From Escherichia phage AV108, in sequence record OR352938.1: a stretch of 64,000 nucleotides of DNA, one strand, 5' to 3'. The position numbers were made by a program, and so were the translations under genes. The notes beneath the pieces were generated by a model. The model was not told the origin of the DNA. It saw only the letters and a program-made list of their open reading frames with translations, and did no database searches. Positions within the stretch are counted from its first letter, which is position 1, and every line of letters begins with the position of its first letter. Shown here piece after piece: positions 47,439 to 57,211 of the stretch.

Positions 47439-47915
47439 TTAATCATGACCGTGATTTGCAATGTCCGCTCGCGTCTTATCTTTGTGATTTCCTACGTCAA
47501 AGACACGATAACCATTTTCACGCAAAACTTTAATCACTTCTGGGTTATCCTCAAAGACTCCGACAACTTCATCTTTATCAAAGGATTTAATTACCTCTAA
47601 TTTGATGTGATAGTCTTTACGGGAATCGGTACGGCCTCTCATAAAGATTTTATCAAAACACACCCCGTTAGAAATTAACCAATCAATTGTTTCCATGTAA
47701 GCATGTGAACTTCGTCCGGTGAGGATGTAAATCAAATGCCCGTTGTCGGAAAGAGCATTAATAACACGAATTACATCGTAAATGGGGGAATCTCCCCCAC
47801 ATGCCTTGTTATATTCGATCCATGACTCGACTTTATCAAGATTTTCGGTTGGCATCTTTGCTAGTCGATGTGTTGGATCTGTGATCGTAAAATCTAAATC
47901 GACAAAATATATCAT
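47439..47915 (-). CDS. HAD-superfamily hydrolase (putative nucleotidase/phosphatase)
   Basis: N-terminal VDLDFTIT (DxDxT) motif; 158 aa. Confidence 0.5.
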   Translation of the reverse strand: MIYFVDLDFTITDPTHRLAKMPTENLDKVESWIEYNKACGGDSPIYDVIRVINALSDNGHLIYILTGRSSHAYMETIDWLISNGVCFDKIFMRGRTDSRKDYHIKLEVIKSFDKDEVVGVFEDNPEVIKVLRENGYRVFDVGNHKDKTRADIANHGHD

Positions 47916-49078
47916 AGATATTTCCCGAATCGGTTGTAGTCGTCATCTGTTAAATCGGTATTAACCTGAGATACCAGATACATAATCTCTACTTCCTGCG
48001 CTGCATTCTGTACTTCGTCAGAGTTCAACCATTTACGCATCCACGGTAACGGATGACGACGAACACTAAACGGGCTTTTCAGTCCGGCAGCACGCATACG
48101 GGAATCTGCCAGGTATTCTACATAGGTTTTCAGAATTTCCGGTGACAGGTTAGGAATTGCCCCCATTGCGAATAGGTGGTCTACCCATTCTTTTTCTTGC
48201 TCGACAACATCCAGAAAGATTTTCGTTGCTTCGCCTTCAAGTTCTTCCGCAATCTGTTTCCACTCATCACCATCAACCCCCGTTTGCCATTGACGAATAA
48301 TGTATTGTGTGCCTTTTAAGTGAAGTTGTTCATCACGCGCAATAAATTTCATGATCTTCGCGTTACCTTCCAGTAAACCACGTTCGGCAAAGCTGAAAGT
48401 ACATGCAAAGGACACATAAAAACGAATTGCTTCCAGTGCATTGACGCAGTGTGCACACAGATAAATCGAAGCCATCAGATCTCGTTTTGTATCTTCAAAA
48501 AATCTTCTTGCATCATCTAATGCTGTCTGGTCGTCTCGTTCTTCCCAATAGCGGAGATCTTCTTTTGCATTCTCATACTTACGAATCCAATAAAGAACAT
48601 CATCATAATATTTCCCGATAGATTCCGCTCGCTTCATGATAGCAGGGTTATCGATGATCTGGTCGAACTCACTAGCCGGATCAATGAAACAGTTACGCAT
48701 AATGTGTGTATAGCTTCGGCTATGAATCGTTTCGCTGAATGTCCATGTTTGCAACCATGTATCGAGAGTTGGATCAGATACAATTGGACCAAATGCTGCG
48801 GACGGTGCGCGACCTTGAATAGAATCAAGTAATGTCTGATACTTCAAGTTTTCAGTAAAGAAACGCTTTTCAACGTCACCCATATTAAGATATTGAATAC
48901 GGTCGGTTGCAAGTGAAATTTCTTCGGGGCGCCAAAAAAATGACAGAGATTTTTCAATTAGTTCTTCAAATACTTGATGACGCTGAATGTCATAACGAGC
49001 GATACCTAAACCGCTACCCAGAAACATCGGTTCATTCATAATATCAACGTGTTCACGATTAAATACCGTATTTCCCAT
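47912..49078 (-). CDS. nrdB: ribonucleotide reductase small subunit
   Basis: 388 aa (T4 NrdB about 388); adjacent to nrdA; continuous ORF with no intron. Confidence 0.85.
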   Translation of the reverse strand: MGNTVFNREHVDIMNEPMFLGSGLGIARYDIQRHQVFEELIEKSLSFFWRPEEISLATDRIQYLNMGDVEKRFFTENLKYQTLLDSIQGRAPSAAFGPIVSDPTLDTWLQTWTFSETIHSRSYTHIMRNCFIDPASEFDQIIDNPAIMKRAESIGKYYDDVLYWIRKYENAKEDLRYWEERDDQTALDDARRFFEDTKRDLMASIYLCAHCVNALEAIRFYVSFACTFSFAERGLLEGNAKIMKFIARDEQLHLKGTQYIIRQWQTGVDGDEWKQIAEELEGEATKIFLDVVEQEKEWVDHLFAMGAIPNLSPEILKTYVEYLADSRMRAAGLKSPFSVRRHPLPWMRKWLNSDEVQNAAQEVEIMYLVSQVNTDLTDDDYNRFGKYL

Positions 49079-49753
49079 TCACATATTCCTCATTTTACAG
49101 TTATCAAAGTGCCATCGTAGAGCATTGCCTTTATTGGTAATTTTACCGCAATGCGGACAAGGATCTGCCACTGTTGCTTCCTTTGTCCTTTGTGCAATCA
49201 GCTTTATCATTTCCTCGCTATGTGGTATTCCTTTAGTTGGCGATGGTTTCCCAAACATAGGATTTTTACTTCCCATTCTAGCTTTTGAAATGTTTAACGC
49301 GTGCTCCTTTGTTTTTGGCTTACGCATTTTAGCTTTTGTCTCTTCTGATTTCAACACACCTTTCGAAGATTCGCTAATCTTTCTTCGCGTTTCTTCTTTC
49401 ATCGGCTTGCCCTTTCTTTGTTCAGAGATAAGTACCCTAGCTTGTTCATATACCCTAGACGAAACAATATAATCTCTTTTATTGGTCTTCGCATTTTTTG
49501 CTAAACACATCATACCAAATGCTTGTGCCATAGGTCCACCATGAATTTTTGCTAGCAGATGATGAATCACGAAATGTTCTTTTGCTGTCAAATCAATCAG
49601 GTTATCAACTTCATCACCGCCACCCATAGATCTCGGTAAAATATGATGTGTTTCCTTATATCCTTCAACGGTTCCTCTTATCTTTGCTTTTTCTATGATT
49701 GCGTCATGTAATTTTTGTAAGTTCATGAATAAATCCTCGTTTCTGTATACCAT
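49079..49753 (-). CDS. HNH homing endonuclease with NUMOD-like repeats (MobE-like position)
   Basis: HHILPRSMGGGDEVDNLIDLTAKEHFVIHH (HNH) plus repeated basic KG.P...ET..KIS motifs; sits between nrdA and nrdB; start may be Met10 (49726). Confidence 0.7.
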   Translation of the reverse strand: MVYRNEDLFMNLQKLHDAIIEKAKIRGTVEGYKETHHILPRSMGGGDEVDNLIDLTAKEHFVIHHLLAKIHGGPMAQAFGMMCLAKNAKTNKRDYIVSSRVYEQARVLISEQRKGKPMKEETRRKISESSKGVLKSEETKAKMRKPKTKEHALNISKARMGSKNPMFGKPSPTKGIPHSEEMIKLIAQRTKEATVADPCPHCGKITNKGNALRWHFDNCKMRNM

Positions 49754-50032: not shown

Positions 50033-52276
50033 TTACAGCTTGCAAGATGAGCACTCGCTAGCGTCTTCCGTACCATCAGCACCGTCGCGAACGTTCGCAT
50101 AATACAGGGTTTTCAGACCGTAATATTGAGCAAACAACATATCATCTAACACATCAGCAATATCGACTTTACCAGTCTTATAAGTGCTTGGATCGTATGA
50201 TGTATTGGAACTAATCGCCTGATCCACAAACTTCTGCATGATCGCTGCCAGTGTCAGATAAGGCTTGTTACCTTTCTTGATCAGTGTCCAAAGCAGGTCA
50301 ATAACATCAGCATTATTCTCTACGTTCGGAATAACCTGATTAAATTGCCCTTCTTTCGATCCTTTAACCGATACAATACCGCGAGGCGGTTCAATACCGT
50401 TTGTGCTGTTAGATACCTGAGAAGACGACTCACAAGGCATCAGAGCCGAAAGCGTACTGTTACGAATGCCATATTTTTTCAGGTCTTCGCGCAGTTCTTC
50501 CCAATCCATCTCATATACCGGATCAACCAGTTCATCTACTGTCTTTTTGTACCAGTCGATAGGCAGTTCACCGCGTCCATAACGTGTTTCGTGCATCAGT
50601 TCGCAAGCACCCTTCTCTTTAGCCAGTTGCACACTAGCCTTAATCAGAGCATATTGCAAGCGTTCAAACGTTTTATGCGTAAACTCGTTAGCGTCTTCAT
50701 ATGTGAAGAAATTATCCGCGAGATACGATGCAAAGTTAGTCACCCCAACACCCAGAGAGCGACGTTTTTTGGATGTCAGAGCTTGCTCTACAGGATAATC
50801 CTGGTAATCTAACAGGTTGTCAAGTGCACGCACCATAACCATAGCAATGCGTTCTACTTCTTCCATATTTTCGATATCAAAGTTTCCTAAAACATATGCT
50901 GCCAAAGTACATAGGCTGATCTCTGAATCATCACGACCCATCGGTTTTGTAGGCAGAGCAATTTCACAACACAGGTTGGATTGTTTAATCGGTGCTACAT
51001 TACGAATAAACGCCCCGTGATTGTTCATGTTGTCTGTGAACGTTGGGTAGATTCGACCAGTGTTAAAACGTTCAATTGCCACCGCTAAAAACAGGTCTTC
51101 GGCTTTAACACGAGTTTTACGAACACTCGGATCTTTTTCCAGTTTTTCGTAAAGCTGGCGGAAACCTTCCTCATCTCGGAAGTATAGATCCCACAACAAG
51201 CCACCTGCAACATCTGGACTAAACAGAGTAATGTAATCCCGTTTAAGGAATCGCTCTACCATCAGGTTATTAATCTGTACGCCGTAATCAAGATGACGAA
51301 TGCGGTTATCTTCCACCCCCTTATTGTTCTTTAACACAATCAGACTTTCAAACTCTAAATGCCACATTGGGTAATAGAGAGTCGCCGCCCCGCCACGAAT
51401 ACCGCCTTGTGAGCATGACTTAACGGCAGTCTGAAAATGTTTCCAGAATGGGATAACGCCAGTATGACGAACTTCACCATGCCCGATCTTAGATCCTTCC
51501 GCGCGAATCATGCCAGCGTTGATACCGATACCAGCACGCTTGCTAATATACTTGATGATTGCATTTGCTGTTTCGTTGATGCCCTGCAATGAGTCATCAC
51601 TTTCAATCACCACACACGAACTAAATTGGCGTGTTGGGGTACGCACACCTGCCATAATCGGAGTAGGCAGAGAGATTTGCTTATTCGCAACAGCATTATA
51701 AAAATCAATCACATGTTCAAGTCTATTTTCGGTCTCTTCTTGATGCAAGCACATACCGATCAGCATATACGCAAATTGCGGTGTTTCGATGATTTTCTTA
51801 GTGCTGCGATCCTGAACAAGATATTTCTCTTTTAACTGCATCGCACCAGCATAGGTCATTTTAAAATCAAGTTTATGGTCGATGAATTTCTCCAGATATT
51901 CCACTTCTTCACGGGAATACTTTTGCAGAATTTCGCGATCATATTTTCCGATTGCAATATTACGCTCAATATGGCTATAAAAATCAATAGGTTGGAATTG
52001 ACCGTATACTGATTTACGAAGCGCGAACATTGCAAGGTTACTTGCTACATATTGATAATCGGGTGTTTCTACCGTGATGTTATCTGCGGCGACCTTAATC
52101 AATACTTTCTGGATATCATTGGTAGACATACCTTCTGTCAGAAGTGGTTCAACCATATCAAACAATTCATATGGATCAACGTTATGACCTTCGGCTGCCG
52201 CTTCCAGAATTTTCATTACTTTTTCTTTTTCAAACGGAACAGTCAGACCGGAAGACTTAACAACATTTTTAATCAT
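50033..52276 (-). CDS. nrdA: ribonucleotide reductase large subunit
   Basis: 747 aa (T4 NrdA about 754); N-terminal ATP-cone-like region; neighbour of nrdB. Confidence 0.88.
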   Translation of the reverse strand: MIKNVVKSSGLTVPFEKEKVMKILEAAAEGHNVDPYELFDMVEPLLTEGMSTNDIQKVLIKVAADNITVETPDYQYVASNLAMFALRKSVYGQFQPIDFYSHIERNIAIGKYDREILQKYSREEVEYLEKFIDHKLDFKMTYAGAMQLKEKYLVQDRSTKKIIETPQFAYMLIGMCLHQEETENRLEHVIDFYNAVANKQISLPTPIMAGVRTPTRQFSSCVVIESDDSLQGINETANAIIKYISKRAGIGINAGMIRAEGSKIGHGEVRHTGVIPFWKHFQTAVKSCSQGGIRGGAATLYYPMWHLEFESLIVLKNNKGVEDNRIRHLDYGVQINNLMVERFLKRDYITLFSPDVAGGLLWDLYFRDEEGFRQLYEKLEKDPSVRKTRVKAEDLFLAVAIERFNTGRIYPTFTDNMNNHGAFIRNVAPIKQSNLCCEIALPTKPMGRDDSEISLCTLAAYVLGNFDIENMEEVERIAMVMVRALDNLLDYQDYPVEQALTSKKRRSLGVGVTNFASYLADNFFTYEDANEFTHKTFERLQYALIKASVQLAKEKGACELMHETRYGRGELPIDWYKKTVDELVDPVYEMDWEELREDLKKYGIRNSTLSALMPCESSSQVSNSTNGIEPPRGIVSVKGSKEGQFNQVIPNVENNADVIDLLWTLIKKGNKPYLTLAAIMQKFVDQAISSNTSYDPSTYKTGKVDIADVLDDMLFAQYYGLKTLYYANVRDGADGTEDASECSSCKL

Positions 52277-54502: not shown

Positions 54503-54832
54503 TCAAATCAGTTTGAAATAGTTTTCGTTTACATTTTCTTCTGTGATTGCTGTCTTAAATTCTTGACCGTTATCCTGTGTGATGAAATAACGGTCAGAAT
54601 AATCACGAAAACGTTTTAAGTGAGATACCCCAACATTAACACCATTTTCCCAGAAACGAAAGGTAATCATTTTTGGTTCATATCGATAGTCGCTGGTTAA
54701 CACAGTACCATCCCCGCGACGGGCTTCATAAACCGTAATACATTCACGATTAGCGGCTTTAAGGCATTCTTCAATAGTGCCGCACGAGATAATACTTACT
54801 TTTTCATCTACGATTTGTTCTACAGTCCACAT
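54503..54832 (-). CDS. hypothetical protein (109 aa)
   Basis: ATG 54832 with AGAGGA RBS, downstream of promoter 54864-54891. Confidence 0.45.
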   Translation of the reverse strand: MWTVEQIVDEKVSIISCGTIEECLKAANRECITVYEARRGDGTVLTSDYRYEPKMITFRFWENGVNVGVSHLKRFRDYSDRYFITQDNGQEFKTAITEENVNENYFKLI

Positions 54833-54863: not shown

Positions 54864-54891
54864 ATTATACACTATTGCGTTACGCTGTCAA
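54864..54891 (-). promoter_or_regulatory. sigma70-like early promoter (TTGACA-16-TATAAT)
   Basis: Minus-strand -35/-10 pair overlapping the 3' end of the upstream ORF. Confidence 0.5.
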
Positions 54892-56058
54892 CTCTTTTTC
54901 AAAAGATTTTACGATATACATGATGGTGCTCAATTCGGACGGCGCTACTGTCTCTGTGTAGCCATCCGGCATATCTTCTTTCGAGATATAGGAAGTTTTA
55001 CCTTTCATTACTTCCTTGATTTTGTTCTCTAATTCTAAGATCTTTTGACCGTCTTGTAAAGTCAATTCATAAAAGATCTCATGATCGAACTTTGAAACAC
55101 GAGATTGGTTTCTCATGCGCTCATGTGTTTCTTTGTTTGTTATTCCAAATTTCACGCCAACAAAGGAATCATTGTTGGTTAATTTCTGTATATAAAGAGT
55201 TCCTGTCTTTAATGCCTGATAACCATGCTTAGAACACAACGGGCAGCGTGTTCCGCGATTAACAAAATTATCAATAGTTACATCCCATTCATGGTTACGT
55301 TCGCATGTCAGAAGTATTCTTGTTAATGCACCTTTCCACTTTCCTGAAATCCCAATAAATTTTAGTCTGTTGGTTTCGCATATTTTTTCAATTTGTTTTA
55401 ATCGGTCACTTTTTGTTATTGGTGCTGTTCCGCTACATTTGCGACACCGACGACCTAGTTTGAACTTATCATAACTTTGTTCGTAAATGTGATTATTAGG
55501 ACACTCAAATTTAAGTTTAGTTTTTGTTCCTCTCCATTCCCCAATTATACCCAAAAATTTATAATCTCCTTTATTTTCATTTATATAAGATAAGGAATCT
55601 TCTTTATCATGCATCTTGCCCCCGTTACATAAAGGACATCTTGTTTTTTGATGAATGAAATCTGTATATGTTGGTTGGTATGTGTGTCCGTTTGTACAGT
55701 TCATAATGAGTCTTGTTCTGCTATTTTTATACTCCCCACCAACAAAACCAACAAATACATCGTTTGTTTCTTGTTTTATTCTTTCTATCACATTGTTTGG
55801 GTTTAATCTTTGAGAATCAACCACACATTTCTTACACGAAACGTTTTTCCTGATATTTGCTAGAGTTGATGTGTATTCATGCTTGTTATTACATAATATA
55901 AGAGCTTTTGTTTTGAGACCAGACCATTCTCCAACAAACCCCATGAAAGAATAACCAACTTCCAAACATGAATTTTTTACAACATTTTCCCAATAGAAGG
56001 GAGTTTTCGTGTTTCCTTTTATTTCTATACTAATCTCATGTGCTTGACGTACTAACAT
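54880..56058 (-). CDS. protein with four tandem Cys4 zinc-ribbon repeats and C-terminal GIY-YIG-like (T5orf172-type) domain; putative homing-endonuclease-like
   Basis: Four ~65-aa repeats each F.G..GEW.G..T...C...H.Y......F.....C..C; C-terminus LYIQKL...FVGVKFGIT; ATG 56058 with GGAGG RBS. Confidence 0.5.
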   Translation of the reverse strand: MLVRQAHEISIEIKGNTKTPFYWENVVKNSCLEVGYSFMGFVGEWSGLKTKALILCNNKHEYTSTLANIRKNVSCKKCVVDSQRLNPNNVIERIKQETNDVFVGFVGGEYKNSRTRLIMNCTNGHTYQPTYTDFIHQKTRCPLCNGGKMHDKEDSLSYINENKGDYKFLGIIGEWRGTKTKLKFECPNNHIYEQSYDKFKLGRRCRKCSGTAPITKSDRLKQIEKICETNRLKFIGISGKWKGALTRILLTCERNHEWDVTIDNFVNRGTRCPLCSKHGYQALKTGTLYIQKLTNNDSFVGVKFGITNKETHERMRNQSRVSKFDHEIFYELTLQDGQKILELENKIKEVMKGKTSYISKEDMPDGYTETVAPSELSTIMYIVKSFEKELTA

Positions 56059-56088
56059 ATTTTTATCCTCCGTTGTTTCGATGATTGT

Positions 56089-56116
56089 ATTATACATTAC
56101 CACATCAGCATGTCAA
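56089..56116 (-). promoter_or_regulatory. sigma70-like early promoter (TTGACA-16-TATAAT)
   Basis: Minus-strand -35/-10 pair upstream of the zinc-ribbon repeat gene. Confidence 0.5.
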
Positions 56117-56140: not shown

Positions 56141-56168
56141 ATAAAAAAAGCCTTCCCGAAGGAAGGCT
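56141..56168 (-). terminator. rho-independent terminator after gene 32
   Basis: AGCCTTCC-CGAA-GGAAGGCT hairpin followed by minus-strand U-run. Confidence 0.7.
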
Positions 56169-56178
56169 TTAAAATTCA

Positions 56179-57147
56179 TTACATCCCTAACAGAGCGTCA
56201 AGATCATCCAGATCAGAAGCGGAGGAAGTACCGCCACCCAGGTCCAGAGATGCCATCAGGTCATCAGCGGAAGAATCTAACGCCGTGCTAGCTGCGTTAA
56301 TACCAACTACAGTGCTAGCTGCGGTAGTACCAGCGTCGAATGCATTCATCTGTGCGTCAAAATCATCAAGCTGGCTGTTAATCGCTGCCGCAGCACTGGA
56401 AGCCGCAGCACCAGCTACCATAGAAACGCCCATAGTTTTCTTAAATTTGGTTTCCAGTTCATCGAACGGTTTAAACTGGCTAGGCGCTACAATCTCACTC
56501 AGATCAACCATGTTTTCCATCAGATATTTCTGATATGCTTCGTCTTCAATTTTCGGAAGCTGTGATTGCTGCATGAAACGAGAATCATCATAGTTCTGGT
56601 GTTTATCAACCTTCTTAGCTTTCAGGAGGAAGTTAGCACCGGAGAACACACAAGTTACATCTACCGGAACTTCGCCCATGTCGGTATTCACGTTCACCAT
56701 TGCAACGATCTTATCATAAATTTTCTGACCGAAGCGGAATTTGAATACCTTACCTTCATTTTCTGGTGCTTGAGGATCTTTCAGTACCAGAATGTTTGCG
56801 TAGTAAGACGCTTTACGCTTAATCAGTTGCCATTCGGTTTTATCGGTATTGTATAGGTCTTTTTCGTTAATATATTTGCACACAGGGCAAGAATCAAAAT
56901 CACCGTGGGTGCTGGAGCAGTTTTCCCAATACCATTTACCATTAACTTTGAAGGAATGGTTTACCAGTTTCACAATCGGCAGACCGTCTTCTGTCTTAGA
57001 CGGCAGGAAGCGAATCAGGGCTTCACCGTTACCTGCTGCATCAGTCTTAATCTTCCACTCTTTCGGATCTTCTTTGGAGAAACCGTTGCCACCTTTCAGT
57101 GCGGCCAGTTGAGCTTGTAGTTTGGAAGAATCTTGGCGTTTAAACAT
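56179..57147 (-). CDS. 32: single-stranded DNA-binding protein (T4 gp32-like)
   Basis: MFKR...[13 protein letters not shown]...[15 protein letters not shown] and acidic Ala/Ser/Asp-rich C-terminus as in T4 gp32; ATG at 57147. Confidence 0.9.
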
Positions 57148-57183
57148 ATTCACTATTCCTTCTTTTGATTGATTTACTAGACT

Positions 57184-57211
57184 ATTATACAGATTTAAGT
57201 TTACTTGTCAA
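57184..57211 (-). promoter_or_regulatory. sigma70-like promoter upstream of gene 32
   Basis: TTGACA-16-TATAAT on minus strand within the 3' end of gene 59. Confidence 0.5.

Follow-up and report, generated by a model that had tools for sequence, protein, structure and literature searches.

A putative free-standing endonuclease with CapR-type zinc fingers and a T5orf172-like nuclease domain beside gene 32 of a Krischvirus

Escherichia phage AV108, an RB49-like coliphage of the Krischvirus genus, carries beside gene 32 what is most likely (at a probability of about 70%) a free-standing homing endonuclease gene of the T5orf172 class. Its 392-aa product has four CapR-type zinc fingers followed by a C-terminal T5orf172-like nuclease domain; other phages are known to have proteins of this design, to which it adds a new example rather than a new kind. 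Below, we describe the domain composition, fold, and residue conservation of this protein together with the promoter arrangement and the polymorphism of its locus among close relatives.

Results

All features are listed in Table 1 with their positions in the window, i.e., the whole stretch of 64,000 nt of the AV108 genome (OR352938.1) that was analyzed. The reading frame could alternatively start at a GTG at 56103, but this is unlikely because that codon lies upstream of the −10 box of the gene's promoter. The product matches phrog_681 ("endonuclease"; E 1.9e-100), and a protein of phage GoldenSnicker that is annotated as "endonuclease" is 100% identical to it. No second copy of the family was found in the window by tblastn. 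A search of the protein against NCBIfam returned noise only, and neither phmmer with the protein nor hmmsearch with a profile of its C-terminus found anything meaningful among PDB sequences. The AF2 model of the full-length protein has a mean pLDDT of 89.4, and Foldseek found nothing significant for it in the PDB (best E 0.014, unrelated); since a model with several domains and repeats is unsuited to fold searches, the C-terminal domain was also modeled separately.

Table 1. Features of the endonuclease locus in the AV108 window. The zinc-finger rows are based on motif search, repeat alignment, Pfam CapR/DUF4379, and the AF2 model.
Feature	Position	Strand	Details
Gene 32, ssDNA-binding protein	56179..57153	minus	upstream neighbor; annotation in relatives; essential, conserved
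Stem-loop terminator of gene 32	56147..56170	minus	with the promoter, PeSL-type cassette
Sigma-70 consensus early-type promoter for the endonuclease gene	56089..56116	minus	TTGACA-16-TATAAT; 12/12 match
Ribosome-binding site GGAGGA	56066..56071	minus	7 nt 5' of ATG; by reading the sequence
Putative endonuclease gene	54880..56058	minus	ORF, 392 aa; ATG at 56058, TAA at 54880-54882
Zinc-finger repeat 1, aa ~18-83	55810..56007	minus	ligands C56, H60, C75, C78
Zinc-finger repeat 2, aa ~84-148	55615..55809	minus	ligands C121, H125, C141, C144
Zinc-finger repeat 3, aa ~149-212	55423..55614	minus	ligands C186, H190, C205, C208
Zinc-finger repeat 4, aa ~213-279	55222..55422	minus	ligands C252, H256, C272, C275
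T5orf172/MUG113-like nuclease domain, aa 280-392 (113 aa)	54883..55221	minus	GIY-YIG superfamily
3' segment common to the RB49 allele at nucleotide level	54880..55194	minus	blastn vs RB49
Second consensus promoter, serving the 109-aa gene downstream	54864..54891	minus	12/12 match
Conserved 109-aa ORF	54503..54832	minus	no assigned function; between the endonuclease gene and frd

The four repeats of about 65 residues that an earlier note on this DNA had described are recovered by motif search and repeat alignment, and all four carry the motif F-x-G-x(2,3)-G-E/K-W/Y ... T-K/R ... C-x3-H ... C-x2-C with eight invariant columns (F, G, G, T, C, H, C, and C). Each repeat holds four zinc ligands in two pairs that are spaced by roughly 15 to 25 residues, and each forms a beta-beta-beta-alpha unit in the AF2 model. 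The repeats are far beyond chance because the Pfam model CapR (PF21817) matches them in 4 stretches with E 7.7e-29 and 100.1 bits (cut-off 24.2), with its best stretch in repeat 4 spanning aa 221-276. DUF4379 (PF14311, "probable treble clef zinc finger") also scores above its threshold (E 1.8e-11; 44.5 bits versus a cut-off of 24.5). The note's view of the repeats as zinc-finger modules therefore holds, but Pfam classifies them as the CapR-homology/DUF4379 treble-clef type and not as the classical zinc ribbons that it had proposed. With a pairwise identity of 25% to 39%, the repeats appear to be old, and no DNA-level repeat was found among the four fingers beyond chance-like matches of 17 to 25 nt. 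For CapR, electrophoretic mobility shift assays (EMSA) with Cys-to-Ser mutants showed that the zinc-finger cysteines are needed for DNA binding in vitro (PMC8096241). By analogy, the four fingers of the AV108 protein would bind DNA in a zinc-dependent and sequence-specific manner, though their first ligand pair is C-x3-H while CapR has C-x-x-C.

The C-terminal region contains both motifs, LYIQKL and VKFGIT, by which it had been likened to T5orf172-type domains of GIY-YIG-like fold. On its own, this region does not reach the T5orf172 or MUG113 models (PF10544 and PF13455): no Pfam family scores above threshold, PF10544 gives no match, and the best score is that of MUG113 (E 0.087; 13.8 bits versus 22.3). 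Across the family, T5orf172 is matched by 22 of 121 representatives and MUG113 by 26 of 121 (10 and 16 of 55 relatives, respectively, in a smaller set), and one relative, P0059, passes the cut-off. The nuclease-like domain that profile or structure comparisons had been expected to reveal was found by hhalign and by fold search. The former aligns the C-terminus with the T5orf172 domain of gp179 of T5-like phage JLBYU43 (E 1.6e-5, probability 79%), which itself scores 36.7 bits on PF10544 (cut-off 20). The C-terminal domain modeled alone gave a high-confidence model with 98 matches in BFVD at E ≤ 1e-3; those with names are mostly CapR-homology proteins, with single matches named "GIY-YIG domain-containing", "Homing endonuclease", and "T5 Orf172". 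This model has a predicted fold of the GIY-YIG type, comprising a beta hairpin with the two motifs, a helix with the arginine, a third strand, and a helix with the glutamate.

The conserved residues of the domain are Y289, K303-F304-G305, R314, E344-N345, and G366-x-T368-E369-T370, and three family alignments show Y289, K303-F304-G305, R314, and E344 as invariant or almost invariant; the second tyrosine of the GIY-YIG motif is a phenylalanine (K-F-G) in the AV108 protein. Together with the fold search, the hhalign result, and the Pfam matches across the family, these invariant residues place the C-terminus in the T5orf172/MUG113 branch of the GIY-YIG superfamily, as a divergent subgroup that the Pfam models of both families mostly miss. 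The motif around the catalytic glutamate of I-TevI is ERENFWIKE, and the AV108 helix LELENKIKE looks similar. E344 may be read as the counterpart of I-TevI E75 and Odn E180 from its motif and helix position. By analogy with Odn, the protein would cleave DNA in a metal-dependent manner.

The nuclease domain is C-terminal in essentially all of the 150 best family representatives. The earlier note had called this domain order unusual, but DNA-binding-first is the rule in the family, as work on ICP1 has described (Netter 2021; Barth 2021, 2023), and is reversed only relative to I-TevI and the T4 Seg enzymes. Some relatives have the same fingers joined to a different C-terminal domain with only sub-threshold hints of the restriction-endonuclease-like families RAP, PvuRts1I-like_N, or DUF2726; this suggests, but does not establish, a swappable nuclease slot.

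The gene had been placed between frd and gene 32, which is correct for the side of gene 32, but the conserved 109-aa ORF intervenes on the side of frd. The upstream boundary is a complete PeSL-type cassette of terminator (56170..56147), consensus early promoter (56116..56089), and Shine-Dalgarno sequence. A promoter is thus indeed present as proposed, but the gene did not bring it in, as spacer alignment pairs it with the promoter that is already resident at the empty site of phage JSE. The downstream cassette consists of promoter and leader and is about 72% identical to the upstream one over about 83 bp; it is without a stem-loop because it overlaps coding sequence. Specifically, the −35 box TTGACA of the second promoter is formed by the Leu-Thr codons in the end of the endonuclease (...E-L-T-A-stop).

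Among Krischvirus genomes, the allele of the AV108 gene is present in 7 of 65 records. The same site is empty in JSE (121-bp spacer), holds a frameshifted copy in MIZ4, and is occupied by other alleles in RB49 (485 aa), JEP8 (541 aa), FL38 (460 aa), Whisky (486 aa), and Sf20 (281 aa), plus one of 266 aa, with the number of zinc motifs across alleles ranging from 1 to 6 fingers. The gene is therefore sporadically present, absent, or replaced at one homologous spacer site beside a conserved gene among phages that are >90% identical, a distribution characteristic of free-standing homing endonuclease genes, which agrees with what the earlier note had anticipated.

Outside the 3' segment shared at nucleotide level (Table 1), the RB49 allele differs from that of AV108. 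The last ~210 nt of the gene are 90% to 100% identical in the RB49, JEP8, and FL38 alleles (30-nt identity profile), the last 30 nt are 97% to 100% identical, and all alleles end with ...KSFEKELTA/V. The shared segment marks a recombination boundary inside the nuclease domain. The finger arrays are 30% to 60% identical between alleles. We considered that these arrays might be simple deletion or duplication variants of each other and rejected this, with finger-by-finger identities of mostly 20% to 48% and at most 61%.

The flanks of the gene are mosaic with breakpoints near the gene ends, and their mismatch profiles per 50 nt do not co-vary with the allele; neither do the two allelic forms of the 109-aa ORF. 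A comparison of 4 carriers with 8 non-carriers over about 1 kb on each side found no position that was fixed in the former and missing from the latter, so carrier-specific differences point to no target or immunity site.

Discussion

Proteins with one or often several N-terminal CapR fingers and a C-terminal T5orf172 domain have been published for ICP1, T5-like, and other phages (PMC8096241, PMC8263062, PMC10448857). The ICP1-type genes (ICP1 gp165 and gp174; VPBG_00042 of Vibrio phage Helene) share this plan with the AV108 gene and are likewise free-standing, adjoin essential genes, and exchange DNA-binding and nuclease parts modularly. The Helene protein matches ours by BLASTP over the last fingers and the nuclease domain (E 8e-20), and ICP1 gp165 is matched by tblastn and has 4 CapR stretches. 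What differs is the carrier, here a lineage of T4-type coliphages; a 2023 survey found T4 itself to be without T5orf172 genes and named other lineages as enriched (Barth/Dunham/Seed 2023). PLE CapR, the namesake of PF21817, has the zinc-dependent DNA-binding module in common with the AV108 fingers but is a stand-alone repressor, whereas the AV108 protein combines four fingers with a nuclease domain. The CapR-domain proteins of ICP1 carry a C-terminal T5orf172 domain, and CapR aligns only with their N-terminal domains (PMC8096241).

Similar to the AV108 protein, ICP1 Odn (Gp88) has its DNA-binding domain first and T5orf172 last with conserved arginine and glutamate residues; it cuts DNA in vitro, and mutation of the conserved glutamate abolishes this activity (PMC8263062). 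In the literature searched, we found no T5orf172 member besides Odn for which in vitro cleavage has been combined with a knockout of this glutamate. Unlike the zinc fingers of the AV108 protein, the DNA-binding part of Odn is a RepA_N domain from its satellite target, and its role is anti-satellite defense and not homing.

T4 Seg proteins and I-TevI have the same nuclease superfamily fold as the AV108 C-terminal domain but in the opposite order, with the nuclease N-terminal, and with DNA-binding parts other than a zinc-finger array. This classical architecture (N-terminal PF01541, linker, C-terminal DNA-binding modules of the NUMOD/HTH type) is not that of the AV108 protein, which has no match to Pfam GIY-YIG PF01541 over its 392 aa. 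In T4, the spacer between genes 32 and 59 contains segG, whose product cleaves gene 32 (PMC2988022). Both segG and the AV108 gene are free-standing in an intergenic spacer beside gene 32, which by analogy makes gene 32 a candidate target region. Moreover, segG and other seg/mob genes have a resident upstream promoter and an embedded promoter of the downstream gene as seen here, while the endonuclease-specific promoters of T4 are middle or late and that of the AV108 gene is early-type (PMC2988022).

Like the PeSL cassettes known from RB49-like phages (Arbiol et al. 2010; Comeau et al. 2014), the upstream boundary of the AV108 gene combines terminator, early promoter, and Shine-Dalgarno sequence, while downstream there is a similar promoter and leader; the shuffling reported for PeSL cassettes concerned small ORFans. 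In the part of the PeSL paper drawn on here, the homing endonucleases named are of HNH and Seg type only, and the RB49 allele of the AV108 gene is not among them (PMC2839356). A table of homing endonucleases from 2010 lists two HNH-type genes only for RB49 and has no T5orf172/CapR category (PMC2993671).

As a homing endonuclease, the protein would use its four CapR-type fingers like beads on a string to jointly read a long, specific DNA sequence, and its T5orf172-like GIY-YIG-fold domain would cut nearby with Y289 as the GIY tyrosine, R314 as the catalytic arginine, and E344 as the metal-binding glutamate. The resident early-type promoter that follows the terminator of gene 32 would drive its expression, and in a mixed infection the enzyme would cut related Krischvirus genomes lacking the allele at or near the junction of gene 32 and the 109-aa ORF. 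Recombinational repair from the carrier would then fill the break with the gene and part of its flanks. With the promoter of the downstream gene supplied by the last codons of the endonuclease gene, insertion would not be polar and deletion would be costly. DNA binding, cleavage, the target, and homing are inferred here. The pattern of presence and absence is no proof of homing because PeSL cassettes shuffle genes without a nuclease (PMC2839356), and we found no report of homing by any T5orf172 gene in the literature searched. The sub-threshold Pfam score of the C-terminal domain, the phenylalanine in place of the second GIY-YIG tyrosine, and the flanks without carrier-specific differences also speak against this reading.

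It seems unlikely to us that the protein is instead an active site-specific nuclease that serves as a weapon against co-infecting phages or satellites (marker exclusion), with its gene moving by ordinary recombination between the flanking PeSL promoter cassettes. Such a role would fit the shared domain plan with the anti-satellite nuclease Odn (PMC8263062), the documented PeSL-PeSL recombination and mini-circles of RB49 and phi1 (PMC2839356), the two similar consensus promoter cassettes around the gene, flanks without carrier-specific polymorphism, and the combination of a constant nuclease end with many divergent finger arrays, which resembles diversifying target recognition. However, all alleles lie at one locus beside an essential gene, which is homing-like and not required of a weapon. 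PADLOC defense models do not match the protein, Krischvirus phages have no known satellite or competitor target, and homing and exclusion can coexist as in the seg genes of T4 (PMC2988022).

Less plausible still is a decaying passenger, i.e., an intact reading frame without remaining activity or target that is kept only for its overlap with the downstream promoter. Edgell et al. argue that overlaps like the −35 box in the last codons favor gene retention (PMC2988022), the MIZ4 allele is frameshifted, and all 4 differences from the GEC-3S copy are non-synonymous. Yet this overlap needs only about 12 nt and not 1.2 kb, and the carrier copies examined all have an intact reading frame, with no change in any of the 16 zinc ligands or the conserved nuclease residues. 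The dN/dS values versus the Skers and Makalu copies (about 0.1 to 0.4) point the same way but, with 4 to 19 substitutions among copies of the allele, are uninformative.

Finally, we consider it very improbable that the protein has been domesticated into a sequence-specific DNA-binding regulator without catalytic activity, which might act at neighboring promoters in the manner of the CapR repressor or of I-TevI in its autorepression. In favor of this, CapR as founder of the finger family is a repressor that binds a −35 region (PMC8096241), the gene sits between two strong promoters, a phenylalanine replaces the second GIY-YIG tyrosine, and T5orf172 was originally predicted to bind DNA. Against it, the tyrosine, arginine, and glutamate important for GIY-YIG catalysis are invariant in >100 diverse relatives, and T5orf172 domains normally have K-F/I-G at this motif. 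Moreover, the nuclease domain is kept here, whereas the alignment of CapR with the ICP1 proteins is confined to their N-terminal domains, and sister phages would not be expected to lack a core-gene regulator (JSE), carry it frameshifted (MIZ4), or have unrelated finger arrays in its place.

The homing endonuclease that we favor would leave current concepts unchanged and add the T5orf172/CapR-finger class to the inventory of mobile elements in T4-type coliphages. Its locus is a clean example of how a selfish gene avoids doing harm and resists deletion by providing the promoter of the next gene from its last codons, and it shows recombination inside the nuclease domain that exchanges DNA-binding arrays. 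Krischvirus phages offer ready partners for a homing test on E. coli K-12, comprising the carriers GEC-3S and GoldenSnicker, JSE with its empty site, and at least 6 alternative alleles at this site. A bolder and rather doubtful idea is that the allelic series in the gene 32/frd spacer, with its near-invariant T5orf172 3' end and differing CapR arrays, reflects an arms race still under way, with arrays being exchanged or evolved anew so that cleavage among co-infecting phages is redirected. Were this true, and if each finger read a few base pairs modularly, the series would reveal a recognition code from which programmable monomeric nucleases of a new class might be derived, and this in an E. 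coli phage system that is tractable.

Genomic setting

The best explanation for the 392-aa gene downstream of gene 32 in phage AV108 is that it encodes a free-standing, active homing endonuclease of the T5orf172 class whose DNA-binding array consists of four CapR-type fingers (probability about 0.7). The surrounding region shares 99% identity with Escherichia phages FL15 and GoldenSnicker and 94% to 98% with GEC-3S, RB49, Phi1, and JSE; judged by sequence, the window belongs to the genus Krischvirus of T4-type phages. The minus-strand order is 59, 32, the endonuclease gene, a resident 109-aa ORF, frd, two small ORFs, td, and nrdA, so that gene 32 adjoins the endonuclease gene but frd, the other neighbor named in the earlier note, does not.

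Coordinates of features around the endonuclease gene
Feature	Position	Strand	Remarks
nrdB	47912..49078		
224-aa ORF between nrdB and nrdA	49079..49753	minus	NUMOD3 motifs in 2 stretches, Pfam E 6.8e-9
nrdA	50033..52276		
Thymidylate synthase, 410 aa	52345..53577	minus	Pfam match split into two stretches
Second perfect promoter	54891..54864	minus	serves 109-aa ORF
Endonuclease ORF, 392 aa	54880..56058	minus	ATG start, GGAGGA ribosome-binding site 7 nt upstream
Leader ATCGAAACAA	between promoter 56116..56089 and endonuclease ribosome-binding site	minus	
Perfect promoter TTGACA-16-TATAAT	56116..56089	minus	follows gene 32 terminator
Gene 32 terminator	56170..56147	minus	heads the elements that lead up to the endonuclease gene
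Third perfect promoter	57184..57211	minus	12/12 sigma-70 consensus

The 224-aa ORF, in the place that mobE has in T4, is probably a further homing endonuclease gene of the free-standing kind. The split match of thymidylate synthase suggests a large in-frame insertion in its N-terminal half; since the RB49 enzyme is annotated at equal length, this extra segment looks lineage-wide, and it may be a domain or a mobile-element remnant.

Finger array and nuclease domain

The ORF is real, and a longer version from a GTG at 56103 was dismissed because this start sits upstream of the -10 box. As described from the sequence before, its four repeats (64 to 67 aa; 25% to 39% pairwise identity) all carry one motif, with F, G, G, T, C, H, C, and C invariant. 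The Pfam CapR homology domain hits the array in four stretches (E 7.7e-29), and DUF4379 ("probable treble clef zinc finger") is a further match. The repeats are ancient, and none is left at the DNA level. By PHROGs, the full-length protein belongs to phrog_681 "endonuclease" (E 1.9e-100).

The last 114 to 116 aa alone give only a sub-threshold match, to MUG113 (E 0.087), so the earlier call of a T5orf172-like C terminus needed testing. Among 55 homologues, 16 match MUG113 and 10 match T5orf172 (E < 0.1). A profile of the domain collected 121 more distant representatives, of which 26 match MUG113 and 22 T5orf172 (E < 0.01), one passes the curated cut-off, and 106 carry CapR fingers. Using hhalign, the profile aligns to the T5orf172 domain of gp179 of T5-like phage JLBYU43 (itself at 36.7 bits for PF10544 against a cut-off of 20) with E 1.6e-5, and the full proteins match by BLASTP with E 8e-14. 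Three alignments of rising diversity show Y289 (in L-Y-I), K303-F304-G305, R314, E344, and G366-x-T-E-T as invariant or almost invariant. These independent lines concur in supporting the assignment. We read E344 as the putative metal-binding glutamate since its surroundings "LELENKIKE", on the helix that follows the third strand, resemble the stretch around catalytic E75 of I-TevI ("ERENFWIKE"); this reading draws on motif likeness and helix place, not superposition. In vitro DNA cleavage is established for one T5orf172 enzyme, ICP1 Odn, and mutation of the equivalent glutamate abolishes its activity (PMC8263062).

In homologues P0041, P0042, P0043, P0050, and P0053, the same CapR/DUF4379 arrays are joined to another C-terminal domain that bears an "IEYDG..H"-like motif and has faint matches only to restriction-endonuclease-like RAP, PvuRts1I-like_N, and DUF2726, which hints that the slot behind the fingers may take alternative nuclease modules.

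The domain order had been called the reverse of the usual, but a C-terminal nuclease is the norm: among the best 150 of 1765 cluster representatives found with the domain profile (E <= 1e-3), it ends no more than a few residues from the C terminus in essentially all. The order is reversed only in comparison with I-TevI and T4 Seg proteins. ICP1 proteins combine N-terminal CapR-like zinc fingers with a C-terminal T5orf172 domain (Netter et al. 2021; PMC8096241), and among 229 homing endonuclease genes of the T5orf172 type, 87% contain CapR, DUF723, or a related third zinc-finger Pfam domain (named DUF4397 and DUF4379 at different places of that paper), often repeated as "beads on a string" (Barth et al. 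2023; PMC10448857). One of their examples, the endonuclease of Vibrio phage Helene, matches our protein with E 8e-20. The architecture is already published, and GenBank labels the protein "endonuclease" or "GIY-YIG nuclease family protein" in sister phages.

Promoter cassettes and insertion sites

Within 2.4 kb, three 12/12 sigma-70 promoters with 16-nt spacers share the leader ATCGAAACAA. They are early promoter cassettes of the PeSL type that recur between consecutive genes; those flanking the endonuclease gene are PeSL elements of RB49-like phages. The upstream promoter, previously credited to the gene itself, is the resident one, as alignment with JSE identifies terminator, promoter, and leader as the cassette of the empty site and puts the insertion between leader and 109-aa ORF ribosome-binding site. 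The second promoter is predicted to restore expression of the 109-aa ORF. Its -35 box TTGACA provides the Leu-Thr codons of the C-terminal E-L-T-A-stop, and because of this double use all alleles end in ...KSFEKELTA (one in ...ELTV). Several T4 seg and mob genes likewise use upstream promoters and embed that of the next gene, which is thought to favor retention of the endonuclease gene (PMC2988022); unlike T4's endonuclease-specific promoters, the one used here is early-type.

T4 segG lies on the opposite side of gene 32, which it cuts (PMC2988022). At that position, between 32 and 59, a homing endonuclease gene of the HNH type (198 aa) is present in Skers (L007 3902-4498) and MIZ4 (L010 3543-4139). 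It is absent from the window, where spacer 57154..57207 corresponds to it. Gene 32 therefore has an endonuclease insertion site on each side, the two being independent.

Alleles and mobility

The case for a mobile endonuclease gene is strongest in how the locus behaves. In JSE, a spacer of just 121 bp separates gene 32 from the 109-aa ORF, and the 392-aa allele occurs in 7 of 65 matching records. Other alleles have five or six fingers (RB49, 485 aa; FL38, 460 aa; Whisky, 486 aa; JEP8, 541 aa) or fewer (Sf20, 281 aa; a 266-aa allele on a mislabelled contig). In G5211, an unrelated 109-aa ORF occupies the site alone (L009 1577-1906), and in Makalu it lies between the endonuclease gene and the resident ORF (L008 1577-1906); it has its own PeSL-type promoter, and its stop codon overlaps the next promoter's -35 box. 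The mislabelled contig (JAJTNU010000033.1 of GCA_022359775.1, 4.4 kb, labelled Bacillus atrophaeus) has the order gp32, endonuclease, 109-aa ORF, DHFR, td, which identifies it as a Krischvirus fragment, presumably a contaminant of the bacterial assembly.

Compared one by one between alleles, fingers are mostly 20% to 48% identical (maximum 61%), so DNA specificities should differ. The last ~210 nt of our allele are 90% to 100% identical to those of RB49, JEP8, and FL38, and the last 30 nt are 97% to 100% identical in all alleles, which places a recombination boundary inside the nuclease domain. The 109-aa ORF comes in two versions whose distribution does not follow that of the endonuclease alleles, consistent with the picture that nuclease genes sit at boundaries of genetic exchange (Barth et al.; PMC10448857).

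Sporadic presence and replacement are expected of the free-standing homing endonuclease proposed earlier, but this pattern is no proof of homing since PeSL elements recombine mutually, release ORFs as mini-circles, and reshuffle genes with no nuclease involved (PMC2839356). That our gene encodes an Odn-like weapon, moved by PeSL recombination, is unlikely. A decaying passenger kept for its embedded promoter is quite improbable; in MIZ4, the Sf20 allele carries two 1-nt indels, both in A-runs, from either decay or sequencing error. A domesticated regulator is slightly less probable still. For a homing endonuclease, a local target would probably span the junction broken by insertion; no position fixed in carriers and absent from non-carriers was found within ~1 kb on each side, which leaves no candidate for a target or immunity site. 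The most useful by-product is the series of alleles at a single locus, in an E. coli phage system that is easy to work with.
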